This document shows, piece after piece, positions 5,022 through 52,790 of a DNA stretch of 64,000 nucleotides (its first letter is position 1; each line of letters opens with the position of its first letter). The DNA comes from Candidatus Krumholzibacteriota bacterium (GTDB lineage: Bacteria; Krumholzibacteriota; Krumholzibacteriia; Krumholzibacteriales; Krumholzibacteriaceae). The position numbers and the translations under genes were made by a program. The notes beneath the pieces are model-generated. The model made no database searches. It was given only the letters and a program-made list of their open reading frames with translations, and was not told the origin of the DNA. The stretch is from assembly GCA_016932415.1 (NCBI GenBank), contig JAFGCX010000034.1, positions 9,002-73,001 on the forward strand. Reading direction: 5' to 3'.

Positions 5022-5031
5022 GGAAAAAATC

Positions 5032-7129: not shown

Positions 7130-7136
7130 GGGTAGT

Positions 7137-8027: not shown

Positions 8028-8075
8028 GAAATATCTGAATCGCTTTAAAGATCGATATTAAAGGAGGTTGACGCG

Positions 8076-14042: not shown

Positions 14043-15419
14043 ATCGATATCCCGAAAAATATATTCAGGGAATATGATATAAGGGGCCTGGTCGACAAGG
14101 ATCTTACTCCCGATAACGTAAGATTGCTCGGTGGAGCTATCGCGGTGACGTTGCGACGTGAAGATATCGGTACGGCAGTCGTCGGAAGAGATGTACGCCC
14201 CAGTAGCAACAGTTATTTTGATGCGATGACCGACGGGCTTATGAAGGGTGGGATCGATGTTGTCGATATAGGGACAGTTCCCACACCAGTGCTTTATTTC
14301 GCCGCTGAAAGATGGGGCATCAGGGGCGGAGTAATGATAACGGCAAGTCATAATCCAGCAGAATTCAACGGATTCAAAATAATCCGGGGCGACGGATCGG
14401 TATATGGCAAGGATATTCTCGAACTCCACGCGATCATAGAAGCTGGTGGTCTTTACTCGGATGGAAACGGGAAAATGACAAAGAGGGATGCCAACAGCGA
14501 ATATATTGAATATCTCGTTTCCAATATCAAGCTGGCAAGGCCTGTCAGGTTCGCCATTGATGGCGGCAACGGGACGTCGGGGATATCGGCTCCGGAGATA
14601 TTCAGGAGACTCGGTTGTGACCCCGTCGAACTTTTCATGGAGCCGGATGGCACTTTTCCCAACCACCACCCCGATCCTACCGTTGAAAAAAATCTCGTGG
14701 ACCTGAAAAAGGCTGTTATCGAGGGTGGTCTTGAACTCGGCATAGGATTCGATGGAGATACCGACAGGATCGGAGTCCTTGATGATAAAGGGAATATCAT
14801 CCGCGGAGACAGCCTCCTGGCGATATACAGCAGAGAAATTCTTGCCGATAATCCAGGTTCGTCGGTTATCTTCGAAGTTAAATGCTCACAGGGACTCGAA
14901 GAGGATATTTTAGCCCATGGCGGAAAACCAATCATGTGGAAAACGGGGCATTCTCTTATAAAAAAGAAGATGAAGGAAGAGGGAGCTCTTCTTGCCGGTG
15001 AGATGAGCGGCCACCAGTTTTTCGCCGACAGGTATTTCGGTTTTGATGACGCGATATACGCTGCGTGCAGGCTTCTCGAAATCGTTTCGAGGAGTGAAGT
15101 CCCTCTCAGTGAAATTTATAAGAGTCTTCCTCAATATATCAATACCCCGGAGATTCGTGTCGATTGCACCGATGAAAGCAAATTCAGAATAGTGAACGAG
15201 ATACGGGATTATTTCAGGGCGACGAGGGAAGTCATAGATGTAGATGGCGCCAGGGTAAGATTCGACAAGGGATGGGGTCTGATAAGGGCTTCGAATACTC
15301 AACCTGTGCTGGTCCTGAGGTTCGAAGCGACCGATAAAGAAGCTCTCGATGAGATCCGAAGGGAATTCTTCGCCATACTCGGTAAATATATCGATATTTC
15401 GGGAATTATCGATGGATGA
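14043..15419 (+). CDS. Phosphohexomutase (phosphomannomutase / phosphoglucosamine mutase family)
   Basis: Active-site TASHNPAEFNG, metal loop GFDGDTDR, C-terminal RASNTQPVLVLRFEA. The conserved N-terminal IFREYDIRG (equivalent of GlmM YFGTDGIRG) lies upstream of the first canonical start (TTG 14124) and after an in-frame TAA at 14019, implying a non-canonical start (ATC 14043, 6 nt after AGGAGG). Confidence 0.8.
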   Translation: MDIPKNIFREYDIRGLVDKDLTPDNVRLLGGAIAVTLRREDIGTAVVGRDVRPSSNSYFDAMTDGLMKGGIDVVDIGTVPTPVLYFAAERWGIRGGVMITASHNPAEFNGFKIIRGDGSVYGKDILELHAIIEAGGLYSDGNGKMTKRDANSEYIEYLVSNIKLARPVRFAIDGGNGTSGISAPEIFRRLGCDPVELFMEPDGTFPNHHPDPTVEKNLVDLKKAVIEGGLELGIGFDGDTDRIGVLDDKGNIIRGDSLLAIYSREILADNPGSSVIFEVKCSQGLEEDILAHGGKPIMWKTGHSLIKKKMKEEGALLAGEMSGHQFFADRYFGFDDAIYAACRLLEIVSRSEVPLSEIYKSLPQYINTPEIRVDCTDESKFRIVNEIRDYFRATREVIDVDGARVRFDKGWGLIRASNTQPVLVLRFEATDKEALDEIRREFFAILGKYIDISGIIDG

Positions 15420-15473
15420 TACCGTATAATATCAAGCCTGGTTGAATCATTTCTGTCGCTTTCGATCCTGATT

Positions 15474-16553
15474 GTGGGGTATATAGTGTACGCTGCCATC
15501 CTTGCAGGAGGAAAAGGTAAACGCTTCTGGCCTTTGAGCAGAGCTGAGAGACCGAAACAGTTTATAGATATATCCGGTTCTGGAACAATGCTGTCAGTTA
15601 CATTTGACAGGGTCTCATCACTGATCGACCCCTCGAAGATATTCGTCCTTACCGTCGAGAGCCAGGTCGATCTGGTCCACCAGCAGCTTCCACTGATACC
15701 CGAAGCCAATATATTTCCCGAACCTGCCGGAAGAAACACCGCCCCTTCCCTTGCCGTAGCGGCGGCGATGGCCCTGGCAGCGGGAGATGATGAACCTCTG
15801 CTCTGCTGTCCGTCAGATCATATAATAAACGATGCTTCGTCATTTGAAAGAGTCGTCAGGCAAGCTGCCGTGATAGCTTCGAAGCAGGATATTCTGATCA
15901 CTTTCGGAATCAGGCCGGTTTATCCTTCCACGGGATACGGCTATATAGAATCGGGTAGCCCCCTGGATGGTGGAAATGGCGATATCTATTCAGTCAGCAG
16001 ATTCCATGAAAAACCGGAAATAGAAAAGGCTCGCGATTATATAAACAGGAGCGGATATTACTGGAACAGCGGGATCTTCATGTGGAGGCCGTCAGTATTC
16101 CTCGACGCTTGGAAAAGGTTTGTCCCTGAGGGAACGGAACCGCTCGAGAGGATCTCCGAAGCGATAGGATCAAACCGGTTCATCGATACAGTCGGCCATC
16201 AATATCCATTGATGCCGGCGGTATCAGTCGATTACGGGATACTGGAGAAAGCCGATAATGTGGCGGTCATACCCGCCGATCTCGGCTGGAACGACGTCGG
16301 ATCATGGGACGCTCTCTATGATATTCTTCCCGCGGACGAAGACGGGAACAGAAGCCCGGGAAAAGTCGAATCGATCGATTCGACGGGCAATCTCTTCTTT
16401 CATCCGGGAGGAACGATCGCGGCTATTGGAGTGAAAGATCTGATAATAGTTGTAGATGGCGATACAGTCATGGTATGCGGCAAGGGAGAAAGCCAGCGCG
16501 TCAGGAGTCTGGTCGAGAAGATGGAAAAAGAAGGAAAAAAGGAGATTCTTTAG
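15474..16553 (+). CDS. Mannose-1-phosphate guanylyltransferase (GDP-mannose pyrophosphorylase)
   Basis: N-terminal nucleotidyltransferase motif ILAGGKGKRFWPLSRAERPKQF; about 360 aa ManC/GMP-like; GTG start. Confidence 0.85.
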   Translation: MGYIVYAAILAGGKGKRFWPLSRAERPKQFIDISGSGTMLSVTFDRVSSLIDPSKIFVLTVESQVDLVHQQLPLIPEANIFPEPAGRNTAPSLAVAAAMALAAGDDEPLLCCPSDHIINDASSFERVVRQAAVIASKQDILITFGIRPVYPSTGYGYIESGSPLDGGNGDIYSVSRFHEKPEIEKARDYINRSGYYWNSGIFMWRPSVFLDAWKRFVPEGTEPLERISEAIGSNRFIDTVGHQYPLMPAVSVDYGILEKADNVAVIPADLGWNDVGSWDALYDILPADEDGNRSPGKVESIDSTGNLFFHPGGTIAAIGVKDLIIVVDGDTVMVCGKGESQRVRSLVEKMEKEGKKEIL

Positions 16554-21338: not shown

Positions 21339-23675
21339 TCATAAATCGACGTCGATCATCGAATTGCCTTCGGTGGCGCCTGGTAACTGTAAATGTCTTA
21401 ATATCATCTTTTCATTTCCGGGAAGGATGATAGACAGGATATGGGATCCTTCGTCCAGGAGCCCGTATGAAACGACGCCGTTATCGTCAGTCATCGAGGT
21501 GAAAAGACCGTCGACAGATACGATAGCGCCCCGAACTGGCGATCCGGATCTTGATATGGTTATGTCATGACTGTGAAAAATCGTTGGGTCAGGGGCAAAA
21601 AACCTTGCCAGGCCGGTTACGATGGAGTTGGCCTGCATCTGTCGCCAGAGCTGAGAGGAGAATATCTTTTCCGTCTCTCCGTTCAGCGCGGCATGGATCT
21701 CGCACGCGGGAAGATTGGTCTGCTGGAGAAAGAGATGGGACGACTCCGATATCAGGGGATTTTTAAAAGGTGGAATATTGCCGGACATCTCTTTCAGGCT
21801 GCCAGCTATCCTGCTACCCTTTTCACTTCCCGGGTAATGCAGGAAGAGCGGCTCGTCCGATCCTGCGGGCAATTCTGAACCGAAATAGAGGCCGAGGGCG
21901 AGATCTCCGCGAAACCTGTTTGTCCTTTCGATCCTGTCGTCGAGCGAAAGTGATTCCTCCCCCTCGCGCGTGAGGATGATTTCTGCCCCGGCTGTCGTGA
22001 GGATATCCCTCATCTGTTTGGCGATATCGAGGTTGACAGTCGCTCCCCTGAGCCGCATCGGTCCCAGGCCGGAATCTTCCGTACCTCCCCCGGCAGGATC
22101 GATCACGATCTTCTTGCCATGAAATATTCCACCAAGGAGGGGTTCAAGAATGACCACAGTCCGACCGGTGTCGCCGGCAGGTGCGATCTCATCAAGCTCG
22201 ACCCGGCGATAGCCGGGGGCGGTTATCGTGATCGGACTCGCGGAAAGAGAGGCGGGGATCGACAGAACTCCGGCGGCGCCGGCCGCGCACAGAGTCCCGT
22301 CAGGGAAAAAGGCAGCGGCGTCATCGATATCTTTTCCGCTTGCACGGTCAGTTACTATAAGAGAAAGAGTCATCCGGTCATCGCCAGGGGTGAAAAAGAG
22401 CGTGTCGCAGAGACCGGGGACTTCGAATATAAGTCCTTGGTCGAGAGAACTCCTTGCCGATCTGAATCGGAAGACTCCTTTTTTAGATCTTCCTTTCAGC
22501 ACTTTTCCCGATCCCGTCAGTGTCACCTTTAAAGGCTGTCCGTCAGCTACAGGCTCGCCAAACTGATCGAGTATCTTTACGGAAAGCGAGAGATAAGGTC
22601 CTGCCGAATTTTCAAAAGGTAACGCGATTATATGTCTTGCCGGCCTGGTTAATAAGATCTCAAACGGCGTACTGAGGCAGCTGCCGCCAAGGATGCTTCT
22701 CGCGTAAGCCTGAAAACGGTATTTTCCGTTTGGGGCGTCGTAAGGCAGGGCGTATGATATCCTGCCGAGCAAAGGATCCCAGACGGCGGGGACTCTTCTG
22801 CCATTGTCCAGAATGCCGACCGAGGAGGGGTCTACAGGTATCGAGGCGCCAGGGGCCACTGTAAAAGAGATAATCTCCGGTCGACCGATAGTGTCCCCCG
22901 GGAGGTCAACCGGACTGATTACGGGGATGCCCCTGGAGAAATATGATATCAGGCCGAGGAAATACGCTTCCGCTTCAAGTCTCTGTTTTGATGAGATCCT
23001 CAGTTTCTTTTCGATTCCCGGATGCGAGATGTAACTGGCCTCTCCCAGCACAGAGGCCCTGGCGAGAGAATTTCTTAGAACATAGTAGCTTCCAGGTTTT
23101 ATTGACGATCCCTCTATTCCGAGGTTTCTAGACAGGTGCGTCTGTATGTCCGTCGCCAGTTCCATCGAAGCGTCAGGATCTGTGGCGCGGTAATAGACTT
23201 CTATGCTGTTCTTTTTTCTGTCGAGAGAAATATTGGAATTATGATGTATCGATAAAAAGACATCCGGGTCGAAGGAGTTGGCGACCCTGGTCCTTTCAGC
23301 GAGATCGTCTCCGAGAGCAAGGGAGCTGTCAGGAAGAAAATCCCGGTCATTCGTCCTTGTCATGACGACATCAACTCCGGCATCGTTGAGAAGTCCCCAT
23401 AAATAGAGGGCGACGCCAAGGTTGACTTCCGCTTCAGTGAGCGAATCGATTCCGGTCGCTCCTTCGAAATATCCTCCATGGCCGGGATCGATAACGATCT
23501 TTCTGCCTGTAAGTACTGTCGCGTCGGCTTTTCCCGGATCCTCGCTCAAACGGAGGTAAAGACGCTCCCATGAAGTCTGTTTCGAAGCACATCCTGAGAG
23601 CAGGATAATGAAGGTCAGTGCGGCTATTCGGCAGGTCCGGGCGCGGTTCATCCGATCCTCCTTCTGATCGATCAT
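21339..23675 (-). CDS. N-acetylmuramoyl-L-alanine amidase with two Amidase_3 domains (N-terminal active, C-terminal degenerate)
   Basis: Lipoprotein-like signal (LLSGCAS); domain 1 has IDPGHGG...E...SIHHNS zinc-ligand pattern; domain 2 (GKKIVIDPAGGG...GLYFGS) lacks both His ligands. Confidence 0.8.
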   Translation of the reverse strand: MIDQKEDRMNRARTCRIAALTFIILLSGCASKQTSWERLYLRLSEDPGKADATVLTGRKIVIDPGHGGYFEGATGIDSLTEAEVNLGVALYLWGLLNDAGVDVVMTRTNDRDFLPDSSLALGDDLAERTRVANSFDPDVFLSIHHNSNISLDRKKNSIEVYYRATDPDASMELATDIQTHLSRNLGIEGSSIKPGSYYVLRNSLARASVLGEASYISHPGIEKKLRISSKQRLEAEAYFLGLISYFSRGIPVISPVDLPGDTIGRPEIISFTVAPGASIPVDPSSVGILDNGRRVPAVWDPLLGRISYALPYDAPNGKYRFQAYARSILGGSCLSTPFEILLTRPARHIIALPFENSAGPYLSLSVKILDQFGEPVADGQPLKVTLTGSGKVLKGRSKKGVFRFRSARSSLDQGLIFEVPGLCDTLFFTPGDDRMTLSLIVTDRASGKDIDDAAAFFPDGTLCAAGAAGVLSIPASLSASPITITAPGYRRVELDEIAPAGDTGRTVVILEPLLGGIFHGKKIVIDPAGGGTEDSGLGPMRLRGATVNLDIAKQMRDILTTAGAEIILTREGEESLSLDDRIERTNRFRGDLALGLYFGSELPAGSDEPLFLHYPGSEKGSRIAGSLKEMSGNIPPFKNPLISESSHLFLQQTNLPACEIHAALNGETEKIFSSQLWRQMQANSIVTGLARFFAPDPTIFHSHDITISRSGSPVRGAIVSVDGLFTSMTDDNGVVSYGLLDEGSHILSIILPGNEKMILRHLQLPGATEGNSMIDVDL

Positions 23676-23928
23676 TTAATGTCCGGTTGCCACGGTGGAA
23701 AATTCACCGGTAGCATTGATGCCGGTCCAAACCGGCCAGTCCGGAATGATCGCAGTTATTTATTGTCTAACATATAGTTGTGTACTCTTCAAGTCTGATT
23801 TGACGAGATAGTGGAAATCTGTTGAAGATGAAGAATTTCAATAATATCGTCGATTTAACAATATATTGAGATAATAGTTGACGGTTGCCACAATATATGG
23901 TAGAAAATGGCGAGTTTATATTTATTTT

Positions 23929-25365
23929 ATGTCTATTTTTATCAAAACGGAGAAGTTTATCCAGACAAGTCTGAAAAAGCTCCCTTCAGTAGAGAAGGTC
24001 CTCGGCGACGAGCAGGTCTCTTCACTCATCTCGAATTACTCGAGGAATGGTATCACGAGGATCGTCAGAGAGAAGATTGACGCGTATCGCGCGGTATTAC
24101 TGAAGGATACGGCTGAAGACAAGAGCAGCGAAATAATACTCGGTGAGATAGTCACCGCGGTTGCCGAAGAGATCGGATCGATAAGCGCGGTACATCCGAG
24201 AAGGGTCATAAACGCTTCGGGAGTCGTGCTGCACACAAATCTCGGCAGAGCGGTGTTGAGCGAATCGGCCCGATCAGCCCTTGAGTATGTTTCGGCTGGA
24301 TACGTGGATCTTGAGATCGATATGGCCAGCGGACAGAGGACCGAGCGCGACGCAAAGGCGGCGAGGCTTCTCAGTCTTCTTACCGGTTCGGAAAGCGCGC
24401 TGGTAGTGAATAATACAGCCGCGGCAGTGCTTCTTGCCGTAAATACATTCGCCGGTGAGGGAGCTGTCGCAGTCTCCAGGGGAGAACTGGTCGAGATAGG
24501 AGGCAGCTTCAGACTGCCTGAGATACTGTCATCGGCAGCGCGGCAGGTCATCGAGGTAGGTACGACAAACAGGACTCACCCGGGGGATTATAAGGAAGCG
24601 ATAGAAAGGGGCGCGACTCTTCTTCTTAAGGTCCATACGAGTAATTACAGGATCCTTGGATATACGGACGATGTGGAACTTGAAAAACTGGTCGAGATCG
24701 GAAGAGCAAACGATATCCCGGTAATGTACGATCAGGGGAGCGGAATACTCTTTCCTTTCGGCAAGGGAGGACCCGAGGGCGAGGCGGACGCTGGCGCGCT
24801 GATCAAAAGCGGTGTGGACATCCTGTGTTTCAGTGCGGACAAGGCTCTCGGTGGACCGCAGGCCGGACTGATAGCAGGCAGGTCGGGACCTGTTGAAAGA
24901 CTGAGGAAAAATCATCTCAGCAGGGCTCTAAGAGTGGATAAACTGACCCTGGCAGCTCTTGAAGCTGTATTGCTCCAGTACTGGACCGGCCGGACCGACC
25001 AGATCCCGGCGATCAATATGATATTGGAGAGCGTTGAATCGATCGGGAAAAAAGCTGAAAAGTTTTCCGCCGTTTTATCGAAAAAGTTGTCCCCTGGCTG
25101 TAAAGTGACTCTTGTCGAGGGAGAATCATCGATCGGGGGAGGGAGTTTTCCGATAGATCCTCTTCCGACCATACTTGTCAGGATCGAACTGGATCCAGGT
25201 GTGGCGGTAAAGCTTTCGGCGCTGCTTCGCGGGCTTGATCCGGCGATCCTCGTGAGGATCAAGGATGATTCGATATATCTGGATCTCAGGACTGTGACAG
25301 GCGAAGAGGAAGAGATCATCGGGAAGAGCCTGGCAATGGGAATCAAGGAGATTTCAGGGAGGTAG
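23929..25365 (+). CDS. selA: L-seryl-tRNA(Sec) selenium transferase
   Basis: SelA hallmarks: LPSVEKVL, VINASGVVLHTNLGRA, PLP-lysine motif CFSADKALGGPQAGLIAG; ATG 23929 preferred (MSIFIKTEK...) over the TTG 23878 track start, which sits in a promoter-like TTGACG...TAGAAAAT stretch. Confidence 0.9.
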   Translation: MSIFIKTEKFIQTSLKKLPSVEKVLGDEQVSSLISNYSRNGITRIVREKIDAYRAVLLKDTAEDKSSEIILGEIVTAVAEEIGSISAVHPRRVINASGVVLHTNLGRAVLSESARSALEYVSAGYVDLEIDMASGQRTERDAKAARLLSLLTGSESALVVNNTAAAVLLAVNTFAGEGAVAVSRGELVEIGGSFRLPEILSSAARQVIEVGTTNRTHPGDYKEAIERGATLLLKVHTSNYRILGYTDDVELEKLVEIGRANDIPVMYDQGSGILFPFGKGGPEGEADAGALIKSGVDILCFSADKALGGPQAGLIAGRSGPVERLRKNHLSRALRVDKLTLAALEAVLLQYWTGRTDQIPAINMILESVESIGKKAEKFSAVLSKKLSPGCKVTLVEGESSIGGGSFPIDPLPTILVRIELDPGVAVKLSALLRGLDPAILVRIKDDSIYLDLRTVTGEEEEIIGKSLAMGIKEISGR

Positions 25366-26873
25366 TGATTATCATGGGCGATGAAGAGTACGGAAATGTC
25401 GAAGATGGTCTTTCAGGACCCTGTGGTGGAGGCGGTTACTCGATCTTTCTCGATGAGAAAGAGATGTACGCCTTCATGGAGGAGGGAGATTACTCTTCTT
25501 CGCGAAATCTCGACCATTTTCGTAATGTTGAGGAATCTATTGAAAAAAGAATGGTGGAAGGAGAGGGATTCTCCGTCCTTGCCATGTCGATGCTCGAGAG
25601 CCGGATCGCCAGGGATTTTTCGGTCTTGCAGATAGGTCATCTGCTGTCGAAGAACGGTAAAAGGGTGATAATCGTCGACGCGGATTTCCTGAGCCCGGGG
25701 ATGAACGGTCTGTCGGGTGATATCGAAGACCATGGATTTCTTGACCTGCTGCTCTATGGAAGCTCTCTTAAATCAGTCATGAAACCGACAGGTATAGACG
25801 GTGTTCACATAGCCGGTCCAGGATCTTTCCCCGTATCGAGGACGGTGCCGTTTGCCCTGAAGGAGTTTGGAAAGATCAAGGATTACCTGTCGAGCAAATC
25901 GGATATAGTCATATACTGTTCCACGCTTTATACGGAAGACAAGGCGATAAACCCGCTGAGACAGTACGTGGACAGCGTACTTCTCTGTTGCAGCATAGAA
26001 GAGATGGAAGAAGGGGAACTTCAGAAAGTCCTGAAGGATATCGGGCCTGAATTGCCTTCACCGGACCTGGTCTGTTTCTGCTCTGGAAAGGAAACGGCCG
26101 CCGGCGAAGAGGCAGAGATCGAAGATGAGAAGATAATAGACCTCGAACCTGAATCGGAGATCCTCGACCCCGAATCACCTGACGAGGAGATCAAACCGGA
26201 ATTCATAGAGAAATCGGACGAGATCGACTCGGTCTCGAGGAAAGAGAACAGAAGGATAAACGTTCCAAGACTTGCCATCATCATCATCTCGACACTGATA
26301 GTAATCTTTATCATATGGTGGTTGACGATCGACAAGTCTGTCCAGGAAAAAGAAGGTACAGACAGGATGTCGGAACTTGTCCTTAAACAACAGGACGCGA
26401 GGGAGATGGCGCAGAAGGACGATCAGGAACCGGCCGGGGAAAAGGTCGCCGAAGAAGGGGATAAGGTAGAAACCGGGGCTGTTTCTTCCGGACAGGACGC
26501 CGGGATGTCGACTGAGGGAAGCGGGCTTCAGACCGCGGACGTTCCGGATGATCAAAAACCGGAGACGAGGGTGGATGATTCACCGGATGAAAAGGCCACT
26601 CCCGGGGAGGTCACGATAGCTCCAGAGGGGACTTATTATTCGGTACATATAGCTTCTTTTCTCGATATCGGTAGAGCAGGGACCGAAAGCGACTATTTCG
26701 AGAAAAAGAATTACGATGTGCGGATAATGGAAGTTGAACTGAAGGGAAGAACATGGTTCAGGGTGTATATAGGTGAATTCAGGACGAAGGAGGAAGCTGA
26801 AGCGATGCGTACGGAGCTTCTCTCCTTCAGAAGGATAGCTGAAGCCAGAGTAATGAATGTGAAATATAACTAG
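25365..26873 (+). CDS. Membrane protein: cytoplasmic degenerate ParA/MinD-like domain, single TM helix, C-terminal SPOR domain
   Basis: ParA/MinD-like region (KRVIIVDADFLSPGMNGL...) without an intact Walker A; TM helix LAIIIISTLIVIFIIWWLTI; low-complexity acidic linker; C-terminal SPOR-like domain (YYSVHIASFLDIGRAGTESDYFEKKNYDVRIMEVELKGRTWFRVYIGEFRTKEEAEAMRTEL). Start is GTG 25365 or ATG 25374. Confidence 0.6.
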   Translation: MIIMGDEEYGNVEDGLSGPCGGGGYSIFLDEKEMYAFMEEGDYSSSRNLDHFRNVEESIEKRMVEGEGFSVLAMSMLESRIARDFSVLQIGHLLSKNGKRVIIVDADFLSPGMNGLSGDIEDHGFLDLLLYGSSLKSVMKPTGIDGVHIAGPGSFPVSRTVPFALKEFGKIKDYLSSKSDIVIYCSTLYTEDKAINPLRQYVDSVLLCCSIEEMEEGELQKVLKDIGPELPSPDLVCFCSGKETAAGEEAEIEDEKIIDLEPESEILDPESPDEEIKPEFIEKSDEIDSVSRKENRRINVPRLAIIIISTLIVIFIIWWLTIDKSVQEKEGTDRMSELVLKQQDAREMAQKDDQEPAGEKVAEEGDKVETGAVSSGQDAGMSTEGSGLQTADVPDDQKPETRVDDSPDEKATPGEVTIAPEGTYYSVHIASFLDIGRAGTESDYFEKKNYDVRIMEVELKGRTWFRVYIGEFRTKEEAEAMRTELLSFRRIAEARVMNVKYN

Positions 26874-26901: not shown

Positions 26902-29900
26902 TTGATTGAGGTGAGTCTGAACAGACTGGAATTGGTGGGGTTCAAATCATTTATGTCTCCCGTCACGCTGGATTTCAATAAAGGAATAACGGCTATTCTG
27001 GGTCCGAATGGATGTGGGAAGACCAATGTGGTCGACGCTGTAAGATGGGTCCTTGGAGAACAAAGCGCCCGTCAGCTTCGAAGCAATAAGATGGAAAATG
27101 TCATCTTTAACGGAACGCAGCTTCACAAACCGACAGGTTTCGCTACTGTCTCGATGACGATCAATAATGAAAAGGGAGTCTTTCCGATCGACTACGCGGA
27201 GATCACTATCACCAGAAAGGTCTACCGTTCAGGGATAAGTGAGTATTTCATCAATAAGACCCCTTGCAGATTGAAAGATATCAGGGAGCTTTTTGCCGAT
27301 ACCGGGACGGGAAGCCATTCATACGCGGTCATCGAGCAGGAGATGGTCGAATACGTATTGAACGATGCTCACGGCGAGCGAAGGAATATGTTCGAAGAAG
27401 CGTCGGGTATCGTCAAGTACAGGATGCGCAGGGAAGAGGCGAAAAGGAAGCTTAAGCTGACTGAAGCAGATCTCGTCCGTCTCGACGATATCCTCGAGGA
27501 ACTTGGCAAGAATGTCAGGTCGTTGCGGTATCAGGTCGGAAAGACCAGGCGCTACAGGAAGATCAGCGAAAGAATAAAGGAATGGGGGACTATACAGCTA
27601 AGGAAAAATCTCTCCGCCTTTCTCGCGGAAAAAAGAGCGGCCGAGTCGGAACTTTCGCAGGCTAATGAATTGTCCGCTGAAGGGGGAGATTCTCTCAGCC
27701 AGTTTGAAAGAGAAGTCGAAGAGAAAAAATTCCTCCTAGTAGAGAACGAAAAAAGAAATTCTCAACTCCAGAATGAGCGTTATGAGGTGCGAAGGAAGAT
27801 CCAGGGTTCAGAGGAAAAGATCATCCAATATACCGAGCGCAAGGGTGAAGCGGAAAGGAAGATAGAACGGGCTCTGAGAGAGATCGAGGAAGCGGGCGCG
27901 AGACTCGAAAAGATCTCGGACAGGATATCCGGCGTGATCACAGAACAGAAAGGGACTTCCGAGCAGGCCAGGGAGGAAGAGGATGCTATCAGGGCGCTTG
28001 GTGGAAGATTCGAGGAAATATCTGTCAAGATCGAAAGAATGAAGAATGAACTGATCGATCTGAAACAGACGCAGCTCGATTTCCTTCAGGATAAGGTAAG
28101 GGTCCAGAGCAGTCAGGAACACTATGAAACGGTACTGAAAGAACTTGACGCCAGATCGCTCGAAATGCGAGAGAGAGTGACGGGACTTGAGGCTCAGGTC
28201 GGAGAGGTATCGGCTCTTTTCGGGGAGATGGATCAAAGGTTCAGGCAGCGGCAGGTGTCCCTGGCCGACCTGGAGAAAGAACGAGGTGATCTTTACGATC
28301 AACTCCAGGGAGTGGACAGGAGGCTGCCTGAAAGAGAATCAGTGTTATCCGAAAAGAAGACGGAACTGGCGAGAATGATCAGCCGTCATGAACTCTATTC
28401 AAGGATGAAAGAAGATTTCGAGGGATTTCCCGGAGGAGCGAGATATCTTCTTAAAAAGGGAGATTTAAGAGTAAAAGGCCCGCTGGCCGAGATGGTGAAG
28501 ATCGATGAAAAGTACAGGGTGGCACTGGAAGCCGTCCTGGGTGGACTGAGCGATGGCATAGTGGTCGACGATCTTCCCGGCGCGATGGAGCTGATATCGG
28601 AGATCTCCGAAAAAAGAAGGGGCAGCGTCAGGTTTTTTCTTGAAAAGGCCGATGGATGGGGAATCCCCTCTCCACCCGGGGTTATTCCAGGATTGATAGG
28701 CAGATTGAGCGGTTTTGTGGAAGTGCCGGAATCAAGAAAAAGTATGATAGAAAATCTTCTTGGCGGCACATATCTGTTCGATGATCCGAAGAAAGCGCTT
28801 GAGTTCGTGGAATCGGAGGAGGGGCGGGGGTTCGATGCCGTGACTCTTTCAGGGATATATTTCTGCCGGGGAAAGGGAATCTATTATTCCTGCAATTCTT
28901 CGGAAGAGATATCATTGATCGGGCGTTCAGGGGAAATAGAAAAGATGCAGAGCAATATCGATGGATTGAAAGAGACGGTCGCATCGGAAGAGATACTTTG
29001 CGAAAAGGAAAGAGCTGAGAAAGAAAGGCTGAGAAACCTGCTTGTCGATATTGATCAAAAGATAGTGGCAATGAGAAGCGCTCTTGCCGGAGATCAGGAG
29101 GAACTTCAGAAAGTCGAACGCGATTTCATAATGAAAAAGGAGAAATGTTCACTTTTAATGAAGTCTCTTGACGAGATCGAGAATTCAAGGGTCGAGACGC
29201 TTACGAAGCTTGAGGAACTCAGGCTTTCCATGGCGATGCGTCAGGATAATGGTGATGTCTCGGACTCGAAGAAGATCGAATCGGAGCTTTCCATGCTGAC
29301 CGGACGCAGAAATGAATTGGAAGCGGCTCTTACCGAAAGAAAGGTCAGGCTCGCGTCTCTCAAGGGATCACTGGATAAACATAAAGAAGAGATCCGGGGA
29401 CTGGGCGAGATGGAGAAACAGTTCAGCAGTATAATGCAGCAGAGAAACGAGGAGATAACCACATCGAAAGAAGAACTTGCCCGGCTTGGCGGCGATATCG
29501 AACGGGAACGGGCCGTTGTATCGGCTCTTCTCGAGGAGGAAAGGTCAAGTCAGAAGGATATCGATGAGCTTCGGGATATCCTCGATGATATGCGCGGCGG
29601 GATTTCGCTGATGGAGAAGGATCTCAAGACGAGGCAGGAAGAAAAAGAGAGGATCTTCACAAGGATCAACGACGTGAAGATCAGGCTGAGCACCATAGAT
29701 ACAAGAATAAAGGATCTCGTCGAACGCGGGTTCGAGATATATCAGGAGGACCTCGGCTCATATCTTGAAGGCACGGAGATTCCTCTGACCGAGGAAGAAA
29801 AGAATATCACCCGGGAGATGCTCGACAGGGAGAAGAAAAAACTCGAAAGTCTTGGTCCGGTCAATCTTGCTGCTATCGAGGAATACGATGAGAAGAAGAA

Positions 29901-30516
29901 CAGGCTGGATTTTCTTATCGCGCAGAAAGAGGACCTCGATAAGGCTAAAGAAGAGCTGCGCGAAGCTATCAGCCGTATCAACAGCCGCGCCAGGAAACTT
30001 TTCATCGAGACTTTTGACATCGTCAAAGAGTATTTCAGCGAGATCTTCACAGTCCTGTTCGAAGGAGGAGAGGCTTCTCTAGCGCTTGAAGAGGGGACCG
30101 ACCCGCTTGAAGCCGAGATAATAATATCAGCCAGGCCTAAAGGTAAGAGGTTTCAGGATATCTCGCTGCTGTCCGGAGGCGAGCGCGCCCTGACGGCAAT
30201 GGCGCTGCTGTTCGCTCTTTACAAGGCCAAACCATCTCCATTCTGTATATTCGACGAAGTTGACGCTCCTCTTGATGATGCCAATATACAGAGGTTCGTC
30301 CGGATGCTTAAAAAGTTCTCGGATGAAACGCAGTTTATCATAATCACCCACAACAAACGTACTATGGAAGCGGCAACCATGCTGTTCGGAGTGACGATGG
30401 AACAGAAGGGTGTCTCCAAGATCGTCTCCGTGGATCTGACCGAGGTAGAATCGGTCCTTCAGAACAGGACAGCTCCCGCCGAGGCGATGGTCGAAGCGCC
30501 GGTTGCTTCCAATTAG
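26902..30516 (+). CDS. smc: Chromosome segregation protein SMC
   Basis: 1204 aa; N-terminal Walker A LGPNGCGKTNVVDAVRWVLGEQS, long coiled coils, hinge, C-terminal signature LSGGERALTAMALLFAL and Walker B FCIFDEVDAPLD. Confidence 0.95.
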   Translation: MIEVSLNRLELVGFKSFMSPVTLDFNKGITAILGPNGCGKTNVVDAVRWVLGEQSARQLRSNKMENVIFNGTQLHKPTGFATVSMTINNEKGVFPIDYAEITITRKVYRSGISEYFINKTPCRLKDIRELFADTGTGSHSYAVIEQEMVEYVLNDAHGERRNMFEEASGIVKYRMRREEAKRKLKLTEADLVRLDDILEELGKNVRSLRYQVGKTRRYRKISERIKEWGTIQLRKNLSAFLAEKRAAESELSQANELSAEGGDSLSQFEREVEEKKFLLVENEKRNSQLQNERYEVRRKIQGSEEKIIQYTERKGEAERKIERALREIEEAGARLEKISDRISGVITEQKGTSEQAREEEDAIRALGGRFEEISVKIERMKNELIDLKQTQLDFLQDKVRVQSSQEHYETVLKELDARSLEMRERVTGLEAQVGEVSALFGEMDQRFRQRQVSLADLEKERGDLYDQLQGVDRRLPERESVLSEKKTELARMISRHELYSRMKEDFEGFPGGARYLLKKGDLRVKGPLAEMVKIDEKYRVALEAVLGGLSDGIVVDDLPGAMELISEISEKRRGSVRFFLEKADGWGIPSPPGVIPGLIGRLSGFVEVPESRKSMIENLLGGTYLFDDPKKALEFVESEEGRGFDAVTLSGIYFCRGKGIYYSCNSSEEISLIGRSGEIEKMQSNIDGLKETVASEEILCEKERAEKERLRNLLVDIDQKIVAMRSALAGDQEELQKVERDFIMKKEKCSLLMKSLDEIENSRVETLTKLEELRLSMAMRQDNGDVSDSKKIESELSMLTGRRNELEAALTERKVRLASLKGSLDKHKEEIRGLGEMEKQFSSIMQQRNEEITTSKEELARLGGDIERERAVVSALLEEERSSQKDIDELRDILDDMRGGISLMEKDLKTRQEEKERIFTRINDVKIRLSTIDTRIKDLVERGFEIYQEDLGSYLEGTEIPLTEEEKNITREMLDREKKKLESLGPVNLAAIEEYDEKKNRLDFLIAQKEDLDKAKEELREAISRINSRARKLFIETFDIVKEYFSEIFTVLFEGGEASLALEEGTDPLEAEIIISARPKGKRFQDISLLSGGERALTAMALLFALYKAKPSPFCIFDEVDAPLDDANIQRFVRMLKKFSDETQFIIITHNKRTMEAATMLFGVTMEQKGVSKIVSVDLTEVESVLQNRTAPAEAMVEAPVASN

Positions 30517-30531
30517 GGAAGAAATATCGGG

Positions 30532-31428
30532 ATGAAAAGGATCGTCAGGGGATTGGGAAAGACGAAAGAGCGTCTTTTCGCTCCGCTTAGAAAAATATTC
30601 TCGTCAGGTACTTTAGACGAAAATGCCGCACGGGATCTTGAGGATCTTCTGTTTTCAGCCGATCTCGGGGTCGAAGCTACCGAGAGGATAATAGAAAAAG
30701 TGAAGGAAAAGCAGCGGGCGCAGGGGAGTGGCGCGGAAGATTTCCTCAAAGTCATAAATGACGAACTGATGTCAGAGATCGAAGATGTCCCACCGTATAC
30801 AATCCCTGAAGGATCCCCCAGAGTGATAGTAATGACAGGAGTCAACGGAGTCGGCAAGACTTCGACTATCGGAAAACTCGCAAGCCGTTTCAAAGCTGAC
30901 GGAGAGGACGTCCTGCTGGCTGCCTGCGATACTTTCAGGGCCGCTGCGATAGAACAACTTGAATTATGGGCAAAGAAAACAGGTTCTCCGATAGTCAGGC
31001 AGGAAATGGGGTCGGATCCCGCGGCGGTAGCTTTCGATGCCGTCAACTCAGCCATCGCAAAGGGGATCGGAACTGTTATCATTGATACTGCCGGAAGGCT
31101 TCACACGAAATCAAACCTGATGGAAGAGTTGAAAAAGATATTCCGGGTCATCGGTTCGAGGATGCCGGAGGCCGCGGTCGAGGCCTGGCTCGTAATAGAC
31201 GCCAACTCGGGGCAGAACAGTATCCGACAGGCTGAAGTCTTTGTCGAAGCCCTTCCGGTGACGGCACTCATCCTGACTAAACTTGACAGTACAGCAAAGG
31301 GTGGAGCAGTAATTCCGATACAGAGGGATCTTCGCGTACCTGTCCTCTTCACTGGAGTCGGGGAGGGAGTCCTTGATCTCGAACCGTTTGATTCTCAATC
31401 ATTTATCTCTGCCCTGTTAAGCGAGTGA
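30532..31428 (+). CDS. ftsY: Signal recognition particle receptor FtsY
   Basis: SRP GTPase NG domain (VIVMTGVNGVGKTSTIGKLA, DTAGRLH, LILTKLDSTAKGG); short FtsY without a long acidic N-terminal domain. Confidence 0.95.
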   Translation: MKRIVRGLGKTKERLFAPLRKIFSSGTLDENAARDLEDLLFSADLGVEATERIIEKVKEKQRAQGSGAEDFLKVINDELMSEIEDVPPYTIPEGSPRVIVMTGVNGVGKTSTIGKLASRFKADGEDVLLAACDTFRAAAIEQLELWAKKTGSPIVRQEMGSDPAAVAFDAVNSAIAKGIGTVIIDTAGRLHTKSNLMEELKKIFRVIGSRMPEAAVEAWLVIDANSGQNSIRQAEVFVEALPVTALILTKLDSTAKGGAVIPIQRDLRVPVLFTGVGEGVLDLEPFDSQSFISALLSE

Positions 31429-31560
31429 CCGGTACCGTTCCTGCCACAGCCGCTTGCCGTCCGATCTCCCCGGTCCTCTCCGAAGGCGGGCAGCCAAAAA
31501 AAAATATAAAATCAATCAAGTTGTCGGGTAGTCCATCCGAATATCCTTCATAGACAGAAT

Positions 31561-33060
31561 ATGACGTTTCCAGATATCGAGAGGTGGATGATGAAATTGC
31601 GTTTTCATCTTGGATCGATCAGAAGCAGACTGATCTATTCTACATTCGTTATTGTCATGATCATAACGATAATTCATGGGGTATACGAAGAAATTCATTA
31701 CAGGAACATGGCAAACGCTGACCTTGAGACGAAGATGCTCGACATCTCCAATATCATCGCGTTCAATATAGGAGCCAGCCTCGAGTTCAATGACTACGGG
31801 GCGACTCTCGAAACGCTTGAATCCCTGTCGCAGATGAAGGAACTGAAGATGGTGTCGGTCTATGACGACAGCGGTGAACTGGTCACGACCTATGCAAGCG
31901 AGAAAACCGGTGACGGCGGAGTGCCCCTCGAACCGGTACCGGAGAATGACGATGCTCTTCTCAAGAGGAGCAGCGAAGGCCTGTTCATCTACAGGAATGT
32001 CGTAGTCGATGGGAAATCGCTCGGAACGATAGCTCTCAAGGTATCCCTTGAGAGGGTCAACAGCGTGCTCCAGAACAACAGGATATTCAACCTCATAACC
32101 CTGCTCGTCTATGGAGTCGCGTTGACGATCATTTCCATAATCAGCGGTAATGTACTTATTAAACCGATTCTGAAACTGAGGGATTTCGCGCAGACTCTTG
32201 CCCTTGGTGATTTCACCGTAAGGATGGAGATCGCAAGCGACGACGAGATAGGCGACCTGACGAGTTCGATCAATATCATGGCCAACGATATGAGCCTCGC
32301 GCTCCAGCAGGTGATCGACGCGAGCAGGAAAGTGGCCGATACTTCCTCGCGACTTTCGAGGACTTCCCAGCATGTGACGACAACGACGGAGGAGATCAGC
32401 GTCAATACGCGGCAGATAACACAAAACTCGATAAACGCTGCCAAAGTGACGAAACAGGCGATGGATTCGGCACTGAAAGGTGAAGAAGTAGTCAAAAGGT
32501 CGCTTACCGGGATGAACAAGGTCAGTTCGAAGATAGAAGATTCCACGCAGATGATGAAGGACCTCGGGCACAGCTCGAAGGAGATCGATATCATAATCAA
32601 CGTGATCGATGAAATCGCCGATCAGACAAACCTTCTCGCCCTTAACGCGGCGATCGAGGCTGCCCGCGCGGGGGAGCAGGGTAAGGGATTCTCCGTGGTC
32701 GCCGATGAGATAAGAAAGCTGGCGGAAAAAACTGTAGCCGCTACGAAAGAGATCTCTTCGAAGATAACCACGATCCAGGAGGACGCTCGCCAGATGATAT
32801 CGTCGATGAAAGAAAATGTCGATGAGGTGCAGAAGGGATCCGTCCTTTCCAATGAGGCAGGAGCGGCTCTCAGCGAGATCAGGGATCTTGTCACAGGGAG
32901 CAGCGATATGATACAGCAGATCGCTGATGCCGCCAGTGAACACCTGACAGTCACGGAAAGTATGACAAACAGCGTCGAGGAGACGATGCGCGAAGCGCAG
33001 GAACTTGACCAGATGGCCGAGAGCCTTCAGCAACTCGTCAGCAGATTCAAGATACTGTAG
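31561..33060 (+). CDS. Methyl-accepting chemotaxis protein
   Basis: Two TM segments flanking a periplasmic domain, a HAMP region, and the highly conserved MCP signalling domain ([41 protein letters not shown]). Confidence 0.9.
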
Positions 33061-33071
33061 ATCATACTTAC

Positions 33072-33099
33072 TTGACAGCCGGATTATTTTTCCTATAAT
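33072..33099 (+). promoter_or_regulatory. Consensus sigma70 promoter of the riboflavin operon
   Basis: TTGACA - 16 nt - TATAAT read directly, immediately upstream of the FMN riboswitch. Confidence 0.7.
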
Positions 33100-33117
33100 T
33101 GTGATACAGGTAATATT

Positions 33118-33250
33118 ATACCTGATAGACCTTCGGGGCGGGGTGAGATTCCCCACCGGCGGTGACAGTCCGCGAATGGATGTAAAAATCCACTGACCCG
33201 GTGAAATTCCGGGACCGACAGTTAAAGTCTGGATGGGAGAAGGTTCAGGA
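33118..33250 (+). ncRNA. FMN riboswitch (RFN element)
   Basis: Near-consensus RFN aptamer: CTTCGGGGCGGGGTGAGATTCCCCACCGGCGGT...AGTCCGCGAA...GACCCGGTGAAATTCCGGGACCGACAGTTAAAGTCTGGATGGGAGAAGG, upstream of ribD. Confidence 0.9.
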
Positions 33251-33338
33251 ACTTCTGCGCGCGGATGACCAGCCAGGAGCGGACCGGCGCTTTTCTCATC
33301 ATTTCCCCGGTATAAAATTTTCATGGAGCCTGCGGATT

Positions 33339-38744: not shown

Positions 38745-39857
38745 GTGAGGATAGTCGCGCTAAACTGGAGAGACCTGAAGCATCCCGAAGCTGGAGGGGC
38801 GGAAGTACATCTGCACGAGATCCTGGCCCATCTGGGCCGGTGGGGTCATGACGTGGTCGAGATCACATCAGGTTTTCCAGGATCGGGCAGAGATGATGAG
38901 ATAGATGGAGTAAGGATAATCAGGGGGGGACACTGGTACGACGCAAACTTCGTCCTTCCATTGATAGCGCGCGGATATATAAGCAAAAACCAGGTAGATG
39001 TCGTCCTTGAAGATATCAACAAGCTGCCTTTTTTCATGCCGCTGTACACAAAGGTCCCCGTGGTCGGCGTGATACCTCATCTTTTCGGTACGACGGTATT
39101 CAGGGAAGCAAACTGGCTGATAGGGACATATGTGGTCATAATGGAAAAGCTCATACCGGGGATCTTCAAAAATAACAGATTTATGGTCATTAGTCCCAGC
39201 ACGGCTGATGATCTTGCCGCGCGGGGCGTCGACCGGGAAAGAATAGACGTGGTCCTGTGCGGTCTCGATCATGACAGGTACCGCGATCTTTCGCTTGAAC
39301 GATTCGACCGCCCGACGATCGTTCATCTGGGAAGGTTGAGAAAGTATAAAAGCGTCGAGGTCGCCATACGGGCGATGAAGACAATAGTAAAGAGAATACC
39401 TGACGCGAGGCTTGTCATAATAGGAGACGGCCCATACAGGCGGGAGTTGGAGAGAGAGGCCGCGAATATCGGTCTGTCCGGCGCTATCGAGTTCAGGGGA
39501 TATATGGATCCGGGCGCCCTCGTCGAGTATCTCAACAGGGCCCATCTGCTCTTCAATCCCAGTCCGAAAGAAGGTTGGGGGTTGACAGTGGTGGAAGCCA
39601 ATGCCTGCGGTCTTCCTGTCGTGGCCAGCGACAGGCCCGGTCTGAGGGACTCGGTCATCGACAGGGCGACCGGATTTCTTGTCCCCTATGCCGATTCTGA
39701 TGCTTTCGCGGGGAAAGCCCTCGAGATCCTGGAGGATGCGGCCCTATGGAAAGAAATGAGCGACAATTCCCTCAGGCGGGTCAAGGAACTGACATGGGAG
39801 CGTTGCGCCAGGGAAACCGAGAATATTCTTCTCGGTCTGACAGACAGGGATCAATAG
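38745..39857 (+). CDS. Glycosyltransferase family 4 (GT-B, retaining)
   Basis: N-terminal GT4 domain, C-terminal EGWGLTVVEANACGLPVVASD...TGFLV signature. Confidence 0.85.
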   Translation: MRIVALNWRDLKHPEAGGAEVHLHEILAHLGRWGHDVVEITSGFPGSGRDDEIDGVRIIRGGHWYDANFVLPLIARGYISKNQVDVVLEDINKLPFFMPLYTKVPVVGVIPHLFGTTVFREANWLIGTYVVIMEKLIPGIFKNNRFMVISPSTADDLAARGVDRERIDVVLCGLDHDRYRDLSLERFDRPTIVHLGRLRKYKSVEVAIRAMKTIVKRIPDARLVIIGDGPYRRELEREAANIGLSGAIEFRGYMDPGALVEYLNRAHLLFNPSPKEGWGLTVVEANACGLPVVASDRPGLRDSVIDRATGFLVPYADSDAFAGKALEILEDAALWKEMSDNSLRRVKELTWERCARETENILLGLTDRDQ

Positions 39858-39869
39858 CGGGAAAGACGA

Positions 39870-40832
39870 TTGAAGTTAAAAAGATTATCATTTCAACTTT
39901 TGAAAGTGGCGGTGAGCGCCGGACTGATAATATATCTCCTGGGAAGGAAATCCCCGGGAGAACTCGCTGTCTATCTGAAGGATATAGATCCTCTTCTGAT
40001 GGTTCTCGCTGTCCTGATCTTCTTCTCAAGCAGCCTTCTTGGCGCGGTGCAGTGGCATATCCTTCTGAGGGCGGCCGGAGTGGACCTGCCTTTCGGAAAG
40101 ACTTTCCGTTTATATTTTACCGGCCTGTTTTTTAATAATTTTCTCCCCGCGAATGTCGGCGGCGACGCGGTCAAGATATTCGATGTCGTCAGGACGGGGA
40201 ACGATCCCCATAAGGTGTTTGCCGTTACCCTTCTTGACAGGGTCTTTGGAATAACCGGGTTGTGCCTGCTAGCGCTTGGTGCCTCGATATTTTTATCGGC
40301 CGGTGGTTCAGCCAGTTATGATAAAATCTATATCCTGGTCTTTCTGGCCTGTCTTGTCCCCATATTTCTTCTTGCCCTGAATAAAAGGATCTCCGGATCG
40401 TTCAGAACGATCATGGGAAAGATACAATGGTGGGGTATAGGCGAAAGGATCGACCAGGTTCTCTCTCACCTGGGGGGGCTGATAAATCTCAGATCGATGT
40501 CAATCAGACTTTTAGCGCTGACTCTCCTGATCCAGGCGCTGCGCGTCGCGACGCATATTTTTATCGGCAGATCCCTTGGAATAGATATTTCAACGATGTC
40601 AGCGATACATTTCTTTGTCTTTGTACCCCTGCTCGGCCTGATCATGATCCTGCCAGTCTCTATCAACGGACTTGGTCTGAGGGAAGGGGCGGGTGTCGTA
40701 CTTTTTATGCAGATCGGTATCGGTGAGGAACTGGCGGTACTGATGGAGTTTATAACATATGTGGTGCAGGTGGCAGTCAGCCTGCTTGGCGGTATCTTTT
40801 TTATTTTGAGAAAGAAGGCCAATAACGGATAA
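39870..40832 (+). CDS. Flippase-like domain protein (MprF lysyl-PG synthase TM-domain family / UPF0104)
   Basis: Eight predicted TM helices; family signature FNNFLPANVGGDAVKIFDV; TTG start. Confidence 0.7.
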   Translation: MKLKRLSFQLLKVAVSAGLIIYLLGRKSPGELAVYLKDIDPLLMVLAVLIFFSSSLLGAVQWHILLRAAGVDLPFGKTFRLYFTGLFFNNFLPANVGGDAVKIFDVVRTGNDPHKVFAVTLLDRVFGITGLCLLALGASIFLSAGGSASYDKIYILVFLACLVPIFLLALNKRISGSFRTIMGKIQWWGIGERIDQVLSHLGGLINLRSMSIRLLALTLLIQALRVATHIFIGRSLGIDISTMSAIHFFVFVPLLGLIMILPVSINGLGLREGAGVVLFMQIGIGEELAVLMEFITYVVQVAVSLLGGIFFILRKKANNG

Positions 40833-40906
40833 TGTGGAAAGGGTCCAGGATCAGTTTGCCTGCCGATCTGCCGGACCCCGGCGAGGATATCAAGAAAGGG
40901 TTTTAC

Positions 40907-43474: not shown

Positions 43475-43580
43475 GAGAATTTTCTTCCAATCTCCCGGTA
43501 ATTATTGTTATTCTCTCGGAACGATTGTTCCTGTCGAGAAATCAGAACGTTGATGCACAGATTATGGAAAGGTGACGTAA

Positions 43581-47101: not shown

Positions 47102-47105
47102 GGAT

Positions 47106-49197: not shown

Positions 49198-49212
49198 AAA
49201 AGGACGACCGGT

Positions 49213-50097: not shown

Positions 50098-50317
50098 TTC
50101 CGTTGCTTCGGGGACGCGGCCCGCCATGCGTATCTCTTCCTGAATCCGCAAATCATCCGTTCTCCGTGACCGGTTCCGGAACGATCGGTGTCCCGATCCC
50201 GCCACGCCACGCGGGAGAACCGGCAGGTAAAGATGATAGATTTTGAAGGTTTACTAGGATAGTGGAAAATGTTATTATTATTGAAATTGTAAAATATAAC
50301 CTTTGAGGAGGCTGTAT

Positions 50318-52789: not shown

Positions 52790-52790
52790 G

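Follow-up and report, generated by a model that had tools for sequence, protein, structure and literature searches.

In this work we analysed a window of 64,000 nucleotides (nt), positions 9,002 to 73,001 of contig JAFGCX010000034.1 (forward strand) from a Candidatus Krumholzibacteriota bacterium (assembly GCA_016932415.1), and in it a gene, here called gene X, whose product is predicted to join a cytoplasmic pseudoenzyme domain with the fold of the bacterial tyrosine kinases (BY-kinases) to a single transmembrane (TM) helix and a periplasmic SPOR domain. Gene X (25374..26873; this gene and the others of its run are on the plus strand, and all coordinates are those of the window) lies between selA (23878..25365), its conserved upstream partner, encoding L-seryl-tRNA selenium transferase (Pfam SelA, E=9e-120), and smc (26902..30516), which begins 28 nt downstream and was identified from its open reading frame (ORF) and from the Pfam SMC_N and SMC_hinge matches in related loci. 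The conserved selA-X-smc-ftsY run ends with ftsY (30532..31428), the gene for the signal recognition particle receptor. On the minus strand, divergent from selA, is a gene for a lipoprotein-type N-acetylmuramoyl-L-alanine amidase of 778 amino acids (aa) with the lipobox LLSGC (21339..23675; Pfam Amidase_3, E=2.7e-50, two stretches), whose start is 1.7 kb upstream of gene X. An initial annotation, made from the sequence alone, had placed the gene between selA and smc-ftsY and about 1.7 kb from an amidase gene, and the ORF list and Pfam confirmed this position.

The ORF proposed in that annotation, 25365-26873, is present in the ORF list as a maximal frame of 502 aa from GTG 25365, a codon that has one base in common with the selA stop codon. 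It is not a chance frame, since at least 178 full-length homologues were found by a word-indexed search (41-68% identity, those named being nearly all from Krumholzibacteriota metagenome-assembled genomes, MAGs), and 961 relatives at E<=1e-3 by a profile search. The true start is probably ATG 25374, giving 499 aa, because three lines agree: a GGGAGG Shine-Dalgarno sequence at 25357-25362, with the ATG coming 11 nt after it, a database protein of 499 aa (P0001) that matches at 100%, and the same start in the homologues. Residue numbers throughout this text are counted from GTG 25365.

From its N-terminus, the protein consists of a P-loop-fold domain in the cytoplasm, a linker that is acidic and disordered, a TM helix, a periplasmic helix followed by a linker, and the SPOR domain. 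The full-length AlphaFold2 model, based on 119 homologues, is confident for an alpha/beta domain spanning about residues 24-239 and shows disorder at 240-296, a long helix, a second disordered linker and a SPOR fold. Pfam, this model and motif mapping thus bear out the layout first described, namely a P-loop domain without Walker A, a TM helix, linkers and SPOR. The BY-kinase-fold domain occupies residues ~23-239 (25431..26081). The cytoplasmic linker that follows (residues 240-296, 26082..26252) has a predicted local distance difference test (pLDDT) score below 50 and is net acidic (D+E 25% vs K+R 13%). Column counts revealed in it a conserved motif, I-E-K-[TMS]-x-E (residues 281-286), which in its fuller form, I-E-K-[TMS]-x-E-[ILV]-[ED] (281-288; 26205-26228), lies about 14 residues ahead of the TM helix. 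The N-terminal residues 4-22 (25374-25430) are also disordered and carry a conserved E-E-R, with Cys frequent at position 18. Both of these short motifs in disordered cytoplasmic segments may be linear binding motifs.

The single TM helix that had been claimed was found at residues 303-322 (26271..26330), in the sequence, in a hydropathy scan across homologues and in the model, where a helix spanning 297-348 (model numbering) contains it and runs on for about 25 residues into the periplasm. Since the basic residues RKENRR..PR precede the TM helix, and since SPOR must face the wall, the topology is N-in. The periplasmic juxtamembrane part of this continuous helix (residues 323-351, 26331..26417) has the conserved consensus R-S-I-x-E-K-E...E-L-V-Q-K-Q-R-D. 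The second linker (residues 352-418, 26418..26618) is of low complexity, with pLDDT below 50 and a mean identity of 17%, and leads to the SPOR domain (residues 419-500, 26619..26864).

The N-terminal domain had been assigned to the ParA/MinD fold. This is right at the superfamily level only, because BY-kinases belong to the ParA/MinD-related P-loop class; canonical BY-kinases carry Pfam AAA_31, CbiA and ParA domains. At the family level the assignment had to be refined, as Foldseek, hhalign, phmmer and NCBIfam all favoured BY-kinases. When the AlphaFold2 model of residues 4-245 (pLDDT 81.5, predicted TM-score 0.83) was compared with PDB structures using Foldseek, the top 50 matches were all kinase domains of Wzc, Etk, VpsO, BceF or CapAB, the best being Wzc 3la6 (E=8e-11, TM-score ~0.7). 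The X-family N-domain aligned by hhalign with 24 canonical BY-kinases at 99.7% probability (E=2.3e-25, 185 columns). A phmmer search of PDB sequences with the X protein retrieved Wzc at 1.3e-4, and also BceF and CapAB, with Soj (1wcv) at 0.64. The NCBIfam BY-kinase models matched the domain at sub-threshold E-values of ~4e-6 to 9e-6, and a KGGVGR-type AAA model matched it weakly (E=1.9e-4). Against the PDB, the whole-family profile gave weaker matches to BY-kinases than the single X sequence (BceF E=0.025), since family-specific motifs dominate that profile. A Pfam scan, suggested as a check on both halves of the protein, returned SPOR as the sole domain, with no match to the ParA, CbiA and AAA_31 models even at E<=1. 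With the ParA/MinD ATPases X shares the same broad P-loop class and gives weak matches, and BY-kinases are consistently the closer relatives. We therefore consider the N-domain, on sequence and predicted fold, a homologue of the catalytic domains of BY-kinases (Wzc, CapB, Etk) and not of ParA/MinD proper. It also has a strand and helix (residues 24-40) ahead of the core, placed like the juxtamembrane or activator segment of Wzc and CapA-CapB.

The initial annotation had described the domain as lacking Walker A, and the P-loop position (residues 76-84, 25590..25616) indeed reads M-L-E-S-R-I-A-R-D instead of GxxxxGK[ST]. In the phmmer alignment to Wzc and in hhalign, [SA]82-R83-D84 falls onto the G-K-[ST] of Walker A, and the family consensus at this place is V-G-E-N-R-L-S-R-D. 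Column counts, all taken from an alignment of 121 close homologues, showed R83 to be invariant (121/121) and D84 to be present in 120, with conserved Glu78 and Arg80 also inside the P-loop. The deviant Walker A of ParA/MinD, KGGxGK[ST] with its signature Lys, is absent from the P-loop in these counts. The Walker B segment (residues 180-185, DIVIYC, 25902..25919) is likewise degenerate, C185 aligning to the catalytic Asp (DIVIYCSTL vs DvViFDSPP) and being Cys in 118/121 homologues. Walker A' keeps its DxD (residues 101-107, VIIVDAD, 25665..25685), D105 and D107 being invariant and the trailing Arg of hhhhDxDxR being replaced by Leu (VIIVDADFL). The length of the P-loop and its geometry of strand, 5-residue loop and helix are kept in the model with high pLDDT. 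The replacement of both Walker A and Walker B residues supports the pseudo-ATPase that had been suggested, and argues against an ATP cycle in X. No Tyr cluster follows the N-domain, the segment having a median of 0-1 Tyr across homologues; canonical BY-kinases from the same profile search have YYY-rich tails. Because this segment is acidic and Tyr-poor, X would be without a phospho-acceptor tail, and the composition is compatible with an acidic tail that mimics a permanently phosphorylated Tyr tail. The N-domain is the best conserved region of the protein, with a mean pairwise identity of 65%; SPOR follows at 51%, the TM and juxtamembrane helix is at 43%, and the linkers reach 17-26%. It contains 23 invariant columns in 120 sequences, and the invariant motifs LDLLLYGSS and GSFPV are specific to the family. 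For these reasons we regard it as a functional pseudoenzyme, repurposed and not decaying.

The C-terminal SPOR domain that had been claimed was recovered by Pfam PF05036 at residues 422-485 (E=3.5e-8; 34.1 bits, gathering cutoff 21), and its model shows the beta-alpha-beta-beta-alpha-beta fold at pLDDT above 90. Moreover, the X-family profile matches the SPOR structures of FtsN, DamX and DedD. In an alignment to the SPOR domain of FtsN (1uta), S431, W464 and R466 of X correspond to S254, W283 and R285, which are needed for septal localisation and were modelled as glycan contacts (PMC6895207). Of the four FtsN glycan-contact residues that could be mapped, X thus has three. At the position of the fourth, Q251, X has His428 (codon 26646-26648), which is invariant in the close family and nearly so across all the tiers described below. 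Judging from these residues, it is likely, but not certain, that the SPOR domain of X binds denuded glycan.

An exhaustive profile search with the X N-domain alone against 1.84 billion representative proteins yielded the 961 relatives at E<=1e-3. The best 150 of them are ordered as the Krumholzibacteriota family (tier 1), a second tier (E 1e-32 to 1e-20), a heterogeneous third tier (1e-18 to 1e-8) and then Wzc-type kinases, which are canonical, with intact motifs and Tyr-rich tails. Tiers 1-3 have a common layout of N-domain, one TM helix and C-terminal SPOR, and have lost GK[ST] and the Walker B Asp; Arg is nearly universal at the Walker A Lys position across the three tiers, and the distant ones have Cys, Val or other residues at the Walker B position. 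The 144 newly retrieved representatives included 71 with a pseudo-domain and SPOR, 28 canonical kinases and 2 with an intact Walker A and SPOR. A scan of the GTDB species genomes, built on the alignment of tiers 1 and 2 and detecting only proteins that carry GFLDLLLYG, gave 57 X loci, titled Krumholzibacteriota, Latescibacterota and Chitinivibrionia (Fibrobacterota), MAG labels which are not fully reliable. The NCBI taxonomy gives Krumholzibacteriota, Latescibacterota and Fibrobacterota the rank of a phylum each, and places the last two in the FCB (Fibrobacteres-Chlorobi-Bacteroidetes) group. The X layout also occurs in divergent lineages and in one tier-3 protein labelled Eisenbacteria. A homologue search from the distant relative P0191 found no protein other than P0191 itself.

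Automatic annotations name homologues FtsN, DedD or DamX, and occasionally 'FtsN/Mrp family ATPase' or 'DamX/Mrp family chromosome partitioning ATPase', so that annotation pipelines have picked up both halves of the protein. Our full-text literature searches, of incomplete coverage, found no published description of a fusion of SPOR with a BY-kinase, pseudokinase, P-loop or ParA-like domain, in line with the initial claim of an undescribed architecture. The X family is real and well populated, and apparently undescribed; it is a novel combination of two known modules, and its genomic position is conserved to a striking degree. Rare proteins with an intact Walker A (EGK[TS]), P0203, P0265 and P0210 (loci L064-L067), have the same overall layout; P0203 and P0265 match Pfam CbiA and AAA_31, P0210 matches CbiA weakly, and P0203 and P0210 each have two SPOR stretches. 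Their genes adjoin epimerases and histidine kinases, not selA or smc. We considered them as active ancestors in the X locus and rejected this because the genomic context differs; they may represent an independent fusion of an active BY-kinase or ParA-like ATPase with SPOR.

The four genes selA, X, smc and ftsY all point the same way in the window, with gaps of 0-28 nt, and a terminator scan of the window found no terminator-like sites between them. Synteny was counted by tblastn of the window neighbours against all fetched loci: selA lies directly upstream of X in 55/55 loci with upstream sequence, and smc directly downstream in 47 of the 48 with downstream sequence. X usually appears translationally coupled to selA through start/stop overlap, the overlap being up to 4 nt in five tier-3 loci. 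Krumholzibacteriota and MAGs with the label Latescibacterota have the complete run, and the order amidase-selA-X is preserved in a partial locus that bears the label Chitinivibrionia. Five tier-3 loci keep the run although X is only ~20-30% identical, and in one of them (L070) the upstream flank is wholly different. As selA-X-smc-ftsY persists where the flanks differ, the survival of this core in rearranged surroundings argues for selection on co-expression. The amidase gene adjoins the cluster in tiers 1-2. Two Latescibacterota MAG chromosomes show breaks in synteny directly after X: in L053 the X frame continues into a PhoH-like domain (761-aa ORF, 6860-9145), and in L055 X is followed by a 173-aa N-terminal smc fragment (8529-9050) and then by a TrkA-type channel gene. 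These could be real rearrangements or assembly artefacts.

In its N-domain X resembles the canonical BY-kinases (Wzc/Etk, CapB, VpsO, BceF), having the homologous fold with which the hhalign and Foldseek results above (E of the order of 1e-10 for the latter) agree and, at kept positions, the Walker A' DxD, a GLSxxL-like motif and G..P..P. It differs from them in its Walker A ([SA]-R-D), in the Cys of Walker B and in the absence of a Tyr cluster. The arrangement is also different: the kinase domain of X is N-terminal, ahead of the TM helix, whereas that of Wzc is at the C-terminus and follows two TM helices and a Wzz-type periplasmic domain. Canonical BY-kinases have a polysaccharide co-polymerase (PCP) domain in the periplasm, where X has SPOR. 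Since X lacks the canonical Walker A and Walker B residues, a Tyr tail and an association with a PCP, it should not be classed as a BY-kinase in spite of its fold. It resembles EcpK of Myxococcus xanthus and HfsB of Caulobacter crescentus, BY pseudokinases proposed to be phosphorylation-independent scaffolds of PCP-2 partners (PMC12004946), in that it combines the BY-kinase fold with lost Walker catalysis and no Tyr-rich tail. EcpK and HfsB, as described, are soluble proteins that stand alone, have their genes in Wzx/Wzy polysaccharide clusters and bind the cytoplasmic tail of PCP-2, whereas X carries a TM helix and a SPOR domain of its own and is encoded in the selA-smc-ftsY run with no adjoining PCP-2 or Wzx/Wzy genes. 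Moreover, X keeps the DxD of Walker A' and EcpK is without all three Walker motifs. On its predicted features X qualifies structurally as a BY pseudokinase, but it does not share the context of EcpK and HfsB.

According to these data we propose, with moderate confidence, that X is a bitopic inner-membrane, septum-anchored pseudo-kinase scaffold that works independently of nucleotide hydrolysis. The SPOR domain would concentrate X at constriction sites, where amidases strip peptides off glycan strands, and the two-domain lipoprotein amidase encoded next to the run could be one source of the denuded glycan to be bound. The dead kinase domain, presumably unable to autophosphorylate, would act through protein-protein contacts like EcpK and HfsB, self-assembling and/or docking a cytoplasmic partner. 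The strand and helix at residues 24-40 probably fill, in cis, the groove that in other BY-(pseudo)kinases receives the tail of the membrane partner. The leading candidate for this partner would be the chromosome segregation or condensation machinery, because the selA-X-smc-ftsY run is deeply kept and because CpsD binds ParB, and the next candidates would be cytoplasmic divisome proteins. Overall, a process in the cytoplasm would be coupled through the membrane to the condition of the septal wall. The idea of a divisome, Min or Par adaptor put forward in the initial annotation is plausible, and is strengthened by the conserved place of the gene upstream of smc, which is suggestive, though no proof, of a tie between division and the handling of the chromosome.

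A functional precedent is provided by CpsD of Streptococcus pneumoniae, a ParA-like BY-kinase that is present at the septum, binds ParB and links envelope synthesis to chromosome segregation (PMC4574921). CpsD with CpsC offers an example of a BY-kinase-fold protein at the septum by means of a membrane partner. However, CpsD is active as an autokinase, has a Tyr tail, is encoded in a capsule locus and reaches the septum via CpsC, whereas X would be targeted by its SPOR domain and its link to ParB would be by analogy. The more specific proposal, that the dead BY-kinase domain docks ParB/SMC-type machinery while SPOR reads amidase-processed septal peptidoglycan, is one that we put forward as a speculation of low probability. 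If it is true, X would physically coordinate chromosome clearance or condensation with septum closure by means of one polypeptide, from one operon with smc, and would act as a coupler across the envelope that is peculiar to a group of uncultured phyla related to the FCB group.

BY-kinase-fold proteins, active or dead, have so far been known essentially as regulators of polysaccharide export machines, and SPOR proteins as binders of the septal wall in the periplasm, with small or non-enzymatic parts in the cytoplasm. If the scaffold reading is true, X would be the first BY-kinase scaffold recruited to the division septum itself and, kept beside smc over phylum-scale time and outside polysaccharide loci, the first to join this fold to SPOR. 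It would be a candidate link between wall remodelling and chromosome segregation in Krumholzibacteriota, Latescibacterota, Eisenbacteria and relatives. Moreover, the signature of the family, G-K-T to S-R-D and Walker B Asp to Cys, could show non-catalytic roles of BY-kinase folds. The hosts of gene X are all uncultured, and the function that we propose for it is inferred.

Several points must be taken into account against the scaffold. The septal localisation of X, its oligomerisation and its partner are inferred by us from sequence and from known systems. Ring assembly is doubtful, as the ExxRxxR ring-interface motif is kept only in part: in column counts and hhalign its [DE] is retained and its two Arg are not conserved. 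The Arg at the Walker A Lys position and the retained DxD make residual nucleotide binding possible. In the SPOR domains whose structures are known, the Gln at the position of FtsN Q251 is highly conserved (PMC6895207), and its change to His could alter or tune the glycan recognition of X. The amidase gene is absent in four of the five tier-3 loci (L005, L068, L069 and L070). The conserved gene order may reflect co-expression rather than physical interaction. The adjacency of smc and ftsY is common among bacteria, and we know of no functional reason for it. Finally, selA is in the run without an evident link to division.

A first alternative, which we consider unlikely, is that X is a septal peptidoglycan synthesis activator of the FtsN/DedD/DamX type, in which the juxtamembrane helix would be the effector and play the part that the essential domain has in FtsN or the membrane-proximal portion in DedD, the N-domain would only tether the protein to FtsA/FtsZ, and the smc neighbourhood would be incidental. 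Like these proteins, X is bitopic and N-in, with a disordered linker in the periplasm and SPOR at the C-terminus (glycan binding being a prediction for X), its periplasmic half having the order TM helix, helix, disordered linker and SPOR. The moderate conservation of the juxtamembrane helix, at 43%, and the automatic names of the homologues are also in keeping with it. The TIGR02223 ftsN model matches weakly, over the SPOR part only, and with 14.8 bits the score is far from the cutoff of 107.65. This indicates that X is not FtsN. The SPOR Gln is His in X, and no likeness to the essential-domain motif of FtsN was seen in X. The cytoplasmic parts of FtsN, DamX and DedD are short or non-enzymatic and, to our knowledge, are not P-loop folds; that of X, the most conserved of all its regions, is far larger and more conserved than mere tethering would call for. 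This alternative also leaves the strict conservation of the smc neighbourhood unexplained.

We find it rather improbable that the N-domain is a nucleotide-binding switch, or a weak kinase or ATPase with a non-canonical P-loop, in which Arg83 would stand for Lys and Asp84 would coordinate the metal, so that X would act as a membrane-tethered positioning or signalling NTPase (nucleoside triphosphatase) like ParA/MinD, a role implied by the Min/Par adaptor of the initial annotation. Such a switch would fit the kept length and secondary structure of the P-loop at high pLDDT, the invariant DxD of Walker A' and the basic residue at the Lys position in all tiers. However, the changes of Gly to Ser/Ala, of Ser/Thr to Asp and of the Walker B Asp to Cys/Val occurred together and consistently, conserved Glu78 and Arg80 sit inside the P-loop, and neither the KGGxGK signature, nor a Tyr substrate tail, nor a match to Pfam ParA, CbiA or AAA_31 is present.

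A slightly poorer candidate still, and in our view quite improbable, is a rearranged PCP-2-like component of polysaccharide export, in which the pseudokinase would scaffold the Wzx/Wzy machine and SPOR would anchor it to peptidoglycan. All characterised BY-kinases and BY-pseudokinases serve polysaccharide synthesis or export (PMC12004946), the rare Walker-A-intact SPOR relatives adjoin epimerases, and the window holds an outer-membrane polysaccharide export (OPX) gene, nucleotide-sugar genes and a downstream glycosyltransferase cluster. Nevertheless, Pfam found no Wzz/PCP periplasmic domain in X, and none of the ~65 loci puts X in a polysaccharide cluster, selA, smc and ftsY being its invariant neighbours. 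The OPX and glycosyltransferase genes are 19-27 kb from X with housekeeping genes between. A place for X in a polysaccharide locus was thus rejected as the principal explanation, these genes being distant and not conserved neighbours. That the N-domain is a functionless relic and X merely an accessory SPOR protein is hardly credible, for although its catalytic motifs are destroyed, it is the most conserved region of the protein and has been kept over phylum-level divergence with the invariant LDLLLYGSS and GSFPV.

Other features of the window were noted along with the locus. The OPX gene (Poly_export and SLBB domains; 4879-6498, plus strand) comes directly after alaS and is followed by an ORF for a SIS-domain protein, and no PCP/Wzz or BY-kinase gene adjoins it. 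The nucleotide-sugar genes are at 14124-16553. An envelope-glycosylation region (38745-57907, plus strand) encodes a family 4 glycosyltransferase (GT4), an LPG_synthase_TM protein, an epimerase, a YfhO-like protein, a GT2/Bac_transf fusion, a Reg_prop protein and two tandem TMEM260-like O-mannosyltransferase/tetratricopeptide repeat proteins (40832-46142). Between ftsY and ribD there is a gene for a methyl-accepting chemotaxis protein (CHASE8-HAMP-MCPsignal; 31561-33060, plus strand). Since ribD mostly comes directly after ftsY in related loci with gene calls, this gene seems to be an insertion specific to the lineage. The antisense ORF of 602 aa that lies over it (31516-33324) has no Pfam match and is probably a shadow ORF.

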